Origin: a virus
Taxonomy: Duplodnaviria; Heunggongvirae; Uroviricota; Caudoviricetes
Direction: 5' to 3' (one strand)
Virus record (IMG/VR): IMGVR_UViG_2541047121_000018
Location: 1 to 6,362 of that record
Length of the DNA: 6,362 nt
The notes under the pieces were generated by a model. That model was not told the DNA's origin, did no database searches, and saw nothing but the letters and a program-made list of their open reading frames with translations. The position numbers were made by a program, and so were the translations under genes. Below are positions 5,489 to 5,691 of the stretch, piece after piece (the first letter of the stretch is position 1; each line of letters begins with the position of its first letter).

Positions 5489-5568
5489 CTTCCTGTTTGA
5501 TTTACTGGACACTATAGAAGGACAGAATGCCTTCCTCACTCGAATCACATCAATTAAGGAGGTTCAAC

Positions 5569-5691
5569 ATGTTTCATTCCACAAGTCATCAGGCTGTAAT
5601 TATGGCAGCATCAGTTTGTGCCACAGACCTTTTCCGCTTCACTTTGAGCCTGATTCATTTCTACCTGACCGGCTCGCCTCTATCTTTTTAA
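5569..5691 (+). CDS. candidate small ORF, 40 aa (MFHSTSHQAVIMAASVCATDLFRFTLSLIHFYLTGSPLSF), with a near-consensus Shine-Dalgarno; function unknown, possibly the relic start of a lost gene
   Basis: AAGGAGG at 5556-5562, a 6-nt spacer, ATG at 5569-5571, TAA at 5689-5691. It lies in an otherwise non-coding AT-rich spacer and is co-oriented with bor. No family recognised. Confidence 0.3.
   Translation: MFHSTSHQAVIMAASVCATDLFRFTLSLIHFYLTGSPLSF

Follow-up and report, generated by a model that had tools for sequence, protein, structure and literature searches.

Features of the bor-terminase spacer

The DNA analyzed here, referred to throughout as the window, is a stretch of 6,362 nucleotides (nt) that makes up positions 1 to 6,362 of the IMG/VR virus record IMGVR_UViG_2541047121_000018 (Caudoviricetes), and our subject is a 40-codon open reading frame (ORF) in the spacer between the lipoprotein gene bor and the terminase genes, together with the signals that precede it on the same strand. 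A preliminary description of the window had singled out this ORF for its unusually strong translation start in a region with no annotated gene and had offered two explanations, an unannotated small protein co-oriented with bor or the fossil 5' end of a gene lost in a deletion. It had overlooked the phage-RNA-polymerase promoters upstream, the hairpin between them and the antisense overlap of the ORF with the fossil 3' end of the spanin gene lysC, and the more interesting feature of the locus lies 50-130 nt upstream of the coordinates that it gave. In the order in which they are met on the + strand, the ORF and its upstream elements are as follows:

5443-5465, +: T7/Berlinvirus-type single-subunit RNA-polymerase promoter-like site, CAATACAACTCGCTAATGGAGAG, predicted +1 at 5460
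5463-5492, +: hairpin (13-bp stem, 4-nt loop) with a U-rich tail after it, CUGUUUGAUUU, flagged as terminator-like
5500-5522, +: K1-5 (Vectrevirus)/SP6-type RNA-polymerase promoter, ATTTACTGGACACTATAGAAGGA, predicted +1 the G at 5517
5517-5568, +: predicted leader of 52 nt between the K1-5-type +1 and the ATG
5556-5562, +: consensus Shine-Dalgarno (SD) sequence AAGGAGG, 6 nt (TTCAAC) before the ATG
5569-5691, +: 40-codon ORF, ATG at 5569-5571 and TAA at 5689-5691, product MFHSTSHQAVIMAASVCATDLFRFTLSLIHFYLTGSPLSF

The strong start is confirmed where it had been placed, with AAGGAGG, 6 nt, an ATG and 40 codons, and the combination AAGGAGG-N6-ATG occurs only once in the window on both strands, against a mean of 0.01 in 200 dinucleotide shuffles. 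The absence of an annotated gene is likewise borne out, as the Prokaryotic Genome Annotation Pipeline (PGAP) calls the ORF in none of the E. coli genomes listed; exactly this ORF appears as a 'hypothetical protein' (URC10065.1) in the GenBank record of phage vB_EcoS-640R1. Three further GenBank phage records (ON470607, ON470621 and ON470600) name the 40-aa ORF 'protein of unknown function DUF4347', a label that Pfam scanning does not support. An in-frame ATG at 5527 would extend the product through 5527-5568 to a 54-aa form that is open in the window haplotype only; most haplotypes have a TAA at 5551-5553 (5552 being A, not C) that closes it.

Promoter-like sites were scored with position weight matrices (PWMs) derived from 17 annotated T7 promoters, 12 sites found in SP6, 13 promoters annotated in K11 and 13 sites found in K1-5, and variation was followed in 101 copies of the module (52 haplotypes) taken from IMG/VR and from genomes. 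The site at 5500-5522 is identical at 23/23 positions to a site in the genome of phage K1-5 (NC_008152, core at 12588) and scores 36.9 bits on the K1-5 PWM, at the top of the natural range, and 28.2 bits on the SP6 PWM, for which the second-best match in the window reaches 4.8; 200 shuffles yielded 0 matches to it with 3 mismatches permitted. In BLAST searches the 32 nt at 5497-5528 match K1-5, K1E and many Vectrevirus phages at 93-97%, at 6-9 places per genome. The best match of the T7 PWM is the site at 5443-5465, with 17.2 bits (runner-up in the window 1.5), and in other haplotypes the same site scores 22-30 bits, inside the 22-39 bits of natural T7 promoters as obtained by leave-one-out scoring. 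One such variant is identical at 25/26 positions to promoters of Berlin/Yepe2/285P/FE44-type phages, which have 2-6 such places per genome.

The geometry of these elements is nearly invariant. In 101/101 copies the T7-type site lies 57-58 nt upstream of the K1-5-type site on the same strand, the distance from the K1-5-type +1 to the ATG is 52 nt and that from the predicted T7-type +1 is 109-110 nt (109 in the window). Only 27% of the sites in 5493-5555 are polymorphic, compared with 41-60% in the flanks, and no match above 17 bits was found outside the module in 472 kb of related prophage DNA. A lone SP6-like site of 16.9 bits is present in one relative (L018), in a different insert without a homologous ORF. 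Vector contamination was considered as the source of T7 and SP6 promoters and rejected, because the sites are tandem rather than convergent, the DNA around them is native to the prophage, their sequence differs between hundreds of complete genomes, and they match promoters of the K1-5 and Berlin types and not vector sequences. In the copy carried by Shigella phage SfIV (L002 ~540-640; NC_022749 39169-39256) the corresponding sequences are AATACGACTCACTA, equal to the T7 consensus from -16 to -3, and ATTTAGGTGACACT, equal to the SP6 consensus from -17 to -4, so that the Shigella variant is nearer to T7 and SP6 proper while the E. coli variants are of the Berlin and K1-5 types. The GenBank entry for SfIV carries an over-long 'Rz-like spanin' annotation that spans the ORF region.

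The hairpin corresponds to +4 to +33 of the predicted T7-type transcript, and in the fold predicted for 5460-5575 its stem is the dominant element. Among 15 distinct variants pairing is kept in 95.4% of the cells and 3 pairs are altered on both sides, values that 0/500 shuffles matched. A protein-binding palindrome or a - strand element was entertained and set aside, as the compensatory changes and the frequent G-U pairs favor a stem in + strand RNA. The role of the hairpin may be to stabilize the 5' end, as happens in late messages of T7, or to terminate transcription weakly. For the leader the prediction gives no significant structure (z = 0.4), and sequestration of the SD by CCUUCCU (5531-5537) was rejected because the local fold is no better than that of shuffles (z = 0.4).

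Conservation of the reading frame and its Klebsiella counterparts

Comparison of the spacer with related prophages reveals an ORF that is intact and 40 codons long in 101/101 E. coli and Shigella copies. The 16 nt from the SD to the ATG are the same in 51/52 haplotypes, with 1/16 sites polymorphic as against 27-52% in neighboring segments. Codons 24-41 overlap the tail of lysC on the opposite strand, and each change can be read in both frames. In codons 21-41 there are 8 silent and 2 replacement changes in the + frame, 6 at third positions, and the proportions are reversed at these sites in the lysC frame (8 replacement, 2 silent). Over the lysC-overlapped bases the mean pairwise amino-acid identity is 0.82 in the + frame and 0.58 in the lysC frame, with 10/16 and 4/15 invariant columns, respectively. 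The C-terminal half of the product, LFRFTLSLIHFYLTGSPLSF, which is hydrophobic and aromatic, is strictly conserved and the N-terminal half is variable. Codons 2-20 have 25 replacement and 2 silent changes and hence no excess of silent changes, a pattern that indicates relaxed or diversifying evolution (p ~0.02 against a 3:1 expectation, uncorrected).

More distant forms point the same way. Between E. coli and Klebsiella every difference in the last 16 codons is synonymous, and a C-terminal motif, LS[LV]xH[FY][YF]LTG[SY]PLxF, is common to the homologues of 37-40 aa, the distant ones keeping it with conservative changes. Protein searches returned only close relatives and 37-38-aa forms that join unrelated N-termini to the same C-terminus (the Klebsiella form MLKISLLSTIVNHKITFAVIYFLLSLIHFYLTGSPLSF and the proteins P0019, P0021 and P0022), and strong SDs also precede the Klebsiella and the more distant homologues. 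In one phage (L010, IMGVR_UViG_3300029009_000036, ~800-1500) the module is partly duplicated in tandem; the copy proximal to the gene for an HNH endonuclease keeps both promoter-like sites, while its AAGGAGG has become ACGGAGC and its ATG has become ACG, a joint decay that is consistent with selection on one translated copy only.

The preserved frame and the excess of silent over replacement changes thus mark the C-terminal half as that of a predicted small protein-coding gene that is probably translated. A reading in which the ORF is untranslated, and owes its conservation to recent ancestry, to constraint from the overlapping lysC tail or to constraints at the RNA level, is in our judgment quite improbable. 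The family is indeed young and narrow: its E. coli members are 68-100% identical, and among 1.84 billion proteins there are only 6 representative clusters, of which one, a repetitive protein of 662 aa, is probably spurious. That a frame of 40 codons stays open at 84-100% identity has no significance when taken alone; the 25 replacement and 2 silent changes of the N-terminal half and the failure of PGAP ever to call the ORF also suit such a reading. However, the variable sites of the C-terminal half fall on third positions of the + frame, where they are replacements in the lysC frame, and over the shared bases it is the + frame that is the better conserved. Neither the conservation of SD and ATG in E. 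coli, nor the different strong SDs of distant homologues, nor the joint decay in L010 fits an untranslated ORF. Even if the ideas about defense discussed below should fail, the sequence evidence argues for an unannotated family of conserved small proteins whose ORF overlaps, in antisense, the tail of a spanin gene, and the first of the two earlier explanations is supported: the ORF is intact in every homologue, with its SD, ATG and C-terminal half under purifying selection.

Every homologue belongs to a lambdoid prophage, in which it separates the lysis cassette from the packaging genes and is encoded on the opposite strand, irrespective of the type of terminase. In Klebsiella prophages a 38-aa homologue, listed in hundreds of assemblies, stands behind promoters of the Klebsiella-podophage (K11) type: a K11-type site of 28.8 or 23.5 bits (25.5-38.7 bits for real K11 promoters), or else a T7-like site, is located ~160 nt upstream. 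The Klebsiella modules also have a hairpin related to that of E. coli, CTTGTCCAACACGTTGGACA, and a promoter-like 21-mer, CAATAGTGGCGAGTATAGAAC, identical to a sequence that is repeated 8-10 times per genome in ~45-kb Klebsiella podophages. From the K11-type sites and this 21-mer it follows that the promoter types match the podophages of the host species. Two additional elements were seen in these modules, an extra palindrome, TTGTCTCTTATAAGAGACAA, upstream of the K11-type site (L252-L256 and L263-L265, ~2760-2960) and a further promoter-like motif, AAGTTACACAATAGAAATC, 38 nt before the ATG.

A possible role for the cassette

Taken together, the ORF is likely to be a real gene under the control of phage-type promoters, and we lean, with somewhat less assurance, towards reading it as the coding part of a small expression cassette that is carried by temperate phages and read by the RNA polymerases of lytic podophages. 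The proposed cassette would run on the + strand from a T7/Berlin-type promoter through the 5' hairpin, a K1-5/SP6-type promoter, the 52-nt leader and the SD to the 40 codons. A simple scan for sigma-70 promoters found no promoter-like site on either strand of 5300-6362, and the cassette is therefore probably silent in the lysogen. Upon infection by a T7-like or K1-5/K1E-like phage (Autographiviridae) the RNA polymerase of the invader would recognize the prophage promoter and transcribe the cassette, and the strong SD would ensure fast synthesis of a 40-aa, single-helix peptide. This peptide would insert in the inner membrane and harm the infected cell or the invader, by abortive infection or exclusion, so that clonal hosts of the prophage would be protected.

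That the cassette is anti-phage is plausible, though we would put it somewhat below an even chance. A more specific version, which we hold at the lower end of that range, is that of a 'booby trap', in which prophages would display decoy promoters for the podophages of their host species (T7/Berlin- and K1-5-type in E. coli, K11-type and a second type in Klebsiella) and the polymerase of the invader would transcribe the gene of a 40-aa membrane peptide, with an aborted infection as the outcome. An arms race would then have left its traces in the rapid evolution of the N-terminal half and in the swapped promoter specificities. The sequence features and their conservation, the constraint on the C-terminal half at the level of the protein, the identity with real phage promoters and the host-matched promoter types in Klebsiella are what we observe; that phage RNA polymerase transcribes the cassette in vivo, that the ORF is translated, and that its product is in the membrane and acts against phages, we infer.

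AlphaFold2 predicts a single helix for residues 2-34 with a predicted local distance difference test score (pLDDT) of 82, and the best 19-aa Kyte-Doolittle average is 1.53 for the form in the window and 1.83 for that of Klebsiella. No family match came from Pfam, PHROGs, NCBIfam or PADLOC; the lone line in NCBIfam was MscL with E = 0.15, which is noise, with no toxin family among the results, and PADLOC returned 0 families at E<=10 for the three family members scanned. Searches with tblastn find the peptide in temperate phages only and not in lytic podophages, which excludes capture of the ORF from a podophage, and it is therefore only the promoters that mimic these phages.

Several points weigh against the cassette as proposed. 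The T7-type site of the window is weak, with 17.2 bits, below natural promoters, and a G at -6, and the coding signal derives from ~10 polymorphic sites and a few differences between genera. The peptide is borderline as a transmembrane segment, with D20 and R23 within the helix and only the Klebsiella form exceeding 1.6, and in view of the searches above it has no tie to a known defense or toxin family. The sigma-70 scan cannot prove silence in the lysogen, because the promoter of bor also goes unflagged. Finally, no terminator was identified after the ORF, so that transcripts would run on into bor or, in SfIV-type phages, antisense through the lysis genes, and the RNA or the downstream genes could in consequence be the real payload.

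This last point leads to an alternative that we consider unlikely, albeit less so than the others weighed here, in which the promoters are real and the payload is the transcript itself (antisense to the lysis genes, or read through to bor or other cargo), or the module is a recombination or mobilization site for T7-like phages. The lack of a terminator and the presence of bor downstream on the same strand speak for it, as does a further + strand gene of 125 aa downstream in some Klebsiella loci, and the Schneider laboratory has described T7 islands as mobile genetic elements (PMC2189734). Left unexplained by this alternative are the near-invariant SD-ATG segment and the pattern of silent sites in the + frame, and an ORF of 37-40 codons with the same C-terminal motif stays constant while the downstream content varies.

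We give still less credence than to an untranslated ORF to the notion of a type I toxin-antitoxin toxin, or a bor-like lysogen moron, that is transcribed by host RNA polymerase and controlled by antisense RNA, with phage-type promoters that are incidental. In favor of it, the product is small, hydrophobic and helical, the ORF is opposite the late operon and co-oriented with bor, and the late transcript of the prophage is antisense to it. Yet phage-type promoters of such quality and conservation cannot be dismissed as incidental, NCBIfam yields no toxin family, and neither a sigma-70-like site (5300-6362) nor an antitoxin RNA came to light, a weak negative given how crude the scan was; a search of the whole window on both strands against Rfam, with no family at E<=1, rejects a known RNA family or small RNA.

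Comparison with known systems helps to place the proposed cassette. The promoter and leader of T7 class III gene 10 form the basis of the pET expression vectors, and the module may be likened in layout to a natural 'pET cassette', with a phage-polymerase promoter, a 5' stem-loop, a short leader and a consensus SD 6-7 nt before the ATG; it differs in that it lies in a temperate siphovirus without a gene for such a polymerase, has two tandem specificities and would encode a 40-aa peptide. Late promoters of satellite P4 are activated by Ogr of P2, so that satellite genes are switched on by the helper phage, and here too a resident element would stay off until the arrival of one particular phage that provides the transcription factor. 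The module would instead rely on promoter mimicry for a single-subunit RNA polymerase, and its 330 bp hold no genes for replication, packaging or mobilization. Type I toxins and other small membrane-active peptides such as Hok, TisB and ZorO, and membrane-acting effectors of abortive infection, resemble the predicted product in being small, helical and hydrophobic, tightly controlled and plausibly membrane-active. There is no sequence similarity and no antitoxin RNA was identified, and control of the module would be transcriptional and exerted by the invader. Lambda bor and similar morons share the position between lysis and packaging genes, the orientation opposite the late operon and a presence that is polymorphic among related phages. 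The bor product is a 97-aa lipoprotein described as expressed in lysogens, whereas our ORF has podophage promoters in place of a host promoter detectable by a simple scan. Judged as a moron, the module shows insertion polymorphism, promoters of the phage-polymerase and not the sigma-70 type, and no downstream terminator that we could find.

The closest precedent is that of the 'T7 islands', as tandem T7-like promoters in regions of enterobacterial genomes came to be called after Chen and Schneider reportedly described them in 2006 (Nucleic Acids Res 34:1133); no function is said to have been demonstrated. The likeness consists in same-strand promoters of the T7 RNA-polymerase group that cluster in prophage-like DNA of enteric bacteria. 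Here, too, at least two sites on one strand score in the natural range (36.9 bits for the K1-5-type site and, in other haplotypes, 22-30 bits for the T7-type site). The prophages concerned are HK97/SfIV-like in E. coli and Shigella and lambdoid in Klebsiella, and the locus can provisionally be filed as a member of this kind. Possibly new are the conserved small ORF as a common payload, the evidence for coding, the covariation in the hairpin and the Klebsiella parallels. If the proposal is true, infection would be sensed by promoter mimicry, with the transcription enzyme of the invader activating a host-side gene, and the islands reported in 2006 would acquire a function; the accessible defense literature describes no characterized defense that is triggered through a phage-polymerase promoter. 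The element is only 330 bp long, common and directly testable with standard phages such as T7, K1-5, K1E and K11, and could bear on phage therapy of E. coli K1 and Klebsiella, for which Autographiviridae are in wide use.

The inserted module and the source prophage

The remaining features of the locus concern the way in which the module and its neighbors came together:

5312-5346, -: junction of the deletion, with an 8-bp overlap at 5312-5319, and the ~35 nt that survive from the start of the HNH gene, ATG at 5346-5344
5347-5677 (approximate), no strand assigned: inserted module of ~330 bp, relative to phages in which lysC abuts the HNH gene
5639-5757, -: fossil of the lysC 3' end (Rz1-like o-spanin), whose final 17 codons and stop overlap codons 24-41 of the ORF
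5873-6165, +: lipoprotein gene bor/iss (annotated as iss in L001 and L006, as Bor in L003), which follows the ORF as the next gene on that strand

The ~330 bp at 5347-5677 constitute an insert, because in most phages with the same HNH-terS-terL genes lysC or its remnant ends 6-26 bp before the HNH gene (in L005, 26 bp separate the stop of lysC from the HNH start, and in L025-type phages 6 bp separate the remnant from it). The full module is found at 11/148 loci anchored on the HNH gene, in some HK97/SfIV-like prophages of E. coli and Shigella, between lysC and the HNH and terminase genes, and ~750/5426 complete E. coli genomes have it. Presence or absence at the lysis-packaging junction, a typical site for cargo, fits a cargo module. 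The carriers are strains other than the EHEC strains whose translatomes have been published; in E. coli Sakai, for which published ribosome-profiling (Ribo-seq) data exist, the module is absent from the two regions checked, 1,055-1,080 kb and Sp1/Sp2.

The - strand of the window reads ...DLNVSLLSAFWQCNLDKAGIKKIEASRSGRNESGSK* up to the stop, as compared with ...DLNVSLLSALGQCNIDKAGIRNIEMRRNALLAAGK* in intact LysC. The module has replaced the last dozen codons of lysC, and it is in this way that codons 24-41 of the ORF have come to overlap a new lysC tail on the opposite strand. PGAP annotates lysC at the homologous place in SfIV-like prophages. The - strand ORF at 5639-5779 is not a complete LysC gene, since its homology to LysC covers the last ~40 codons only; the 5' part has been replaced by a lambda-type Rz/Rz1-bor module, with a junction near 5757, where the homology with SfIV ends. 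Positions 5312-5757 are 84-85% identical to Shigella phage SfIV and E. coli relatives, which lack bor, and 5757-5872 are lambda-type DNA upstream of bor; this replacement shows the lysis-packaging junction to be a recombination hot spot. The bor gene itself may be reached by read-through from the phage-type promoters. Two other - strand ORFs of the spacer, 5405-5548 and 5236-5445, were dismissed as they are not conserved, one of them being frameshifted in L007. The left neighbor of the module is variable, given that some SfIV-like prophages of IMG/VR (L178 and L192) have a - strand ORF of 91 aa separating the module from the HNH gene and that the module abuts tail or other genes after deletions in two further cases (L231 and L244).

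The window derives from an HK97/P27-type prophage of cattle-associated E. coli, including O157:H7, with the phage genes on the - strand and bor/iss on the + strand. In an intact relative (L001, strain FRIK944) the order is bor (+), a 525-bp spacer, the HNH endonuclease gene (-, annotated at L001 6588-6938), terS (-) and terL (-). Window positions 347-5319 equal L001 589-5561 and positions 5312-6362 equal L001 6904-7954, in both cases at 100%, from which it follows that 1342 bp were lost at the 8-bp microhomology of 5312-5319. The deletion removed codons 1-137 of terL, terS and all of the HNH gene except its first ~35 nt. The preliminary description had named the loss of terS and of the N-terminus of TerL; the position has to be amended, the junction being at 5312-5319 and not at 5408, where an ORF start is listed.

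Against this background, there is next to no chance that the 40 codons are the fossil 5' end of a longer gene cut by the deletion, an idea that has the proximity of the deletion in its favor and nothing more. The junction is 250 nt upstream of the ORF, which reads away from it; the 463-bp spacer is 100% identical, with the same 40 codons, in prophages whose HNH-terS-terL genes are intact; and the deletion is private to a single strain, CV261, the only one of 5426 complete E. coli genomes with this junction. On these grounds the second of the two earlier explanations is refuted.

The deletion has left a fused ORF of 470 aa (3996-5408) that begins in non-terminase sequence, and its RefSeq name is still that of a terminase large subunit. 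Between terL and the portal gene, at 3838-3999 on the - strand, there is a hydrophobic ORF of 53 aa that corresponds to a hypothetical protein in RefSeq relatives (L001 4080-4241). Positions 1-346 of the window belong to the end of an IS3-family insertion sequence, with the C-terminus of an IS1203/IS629-like transposase at 98-304; its immediate neighbors are the genes of the head-tail connector, and from 347 onwards the sequence is homologous to the intact prophage.

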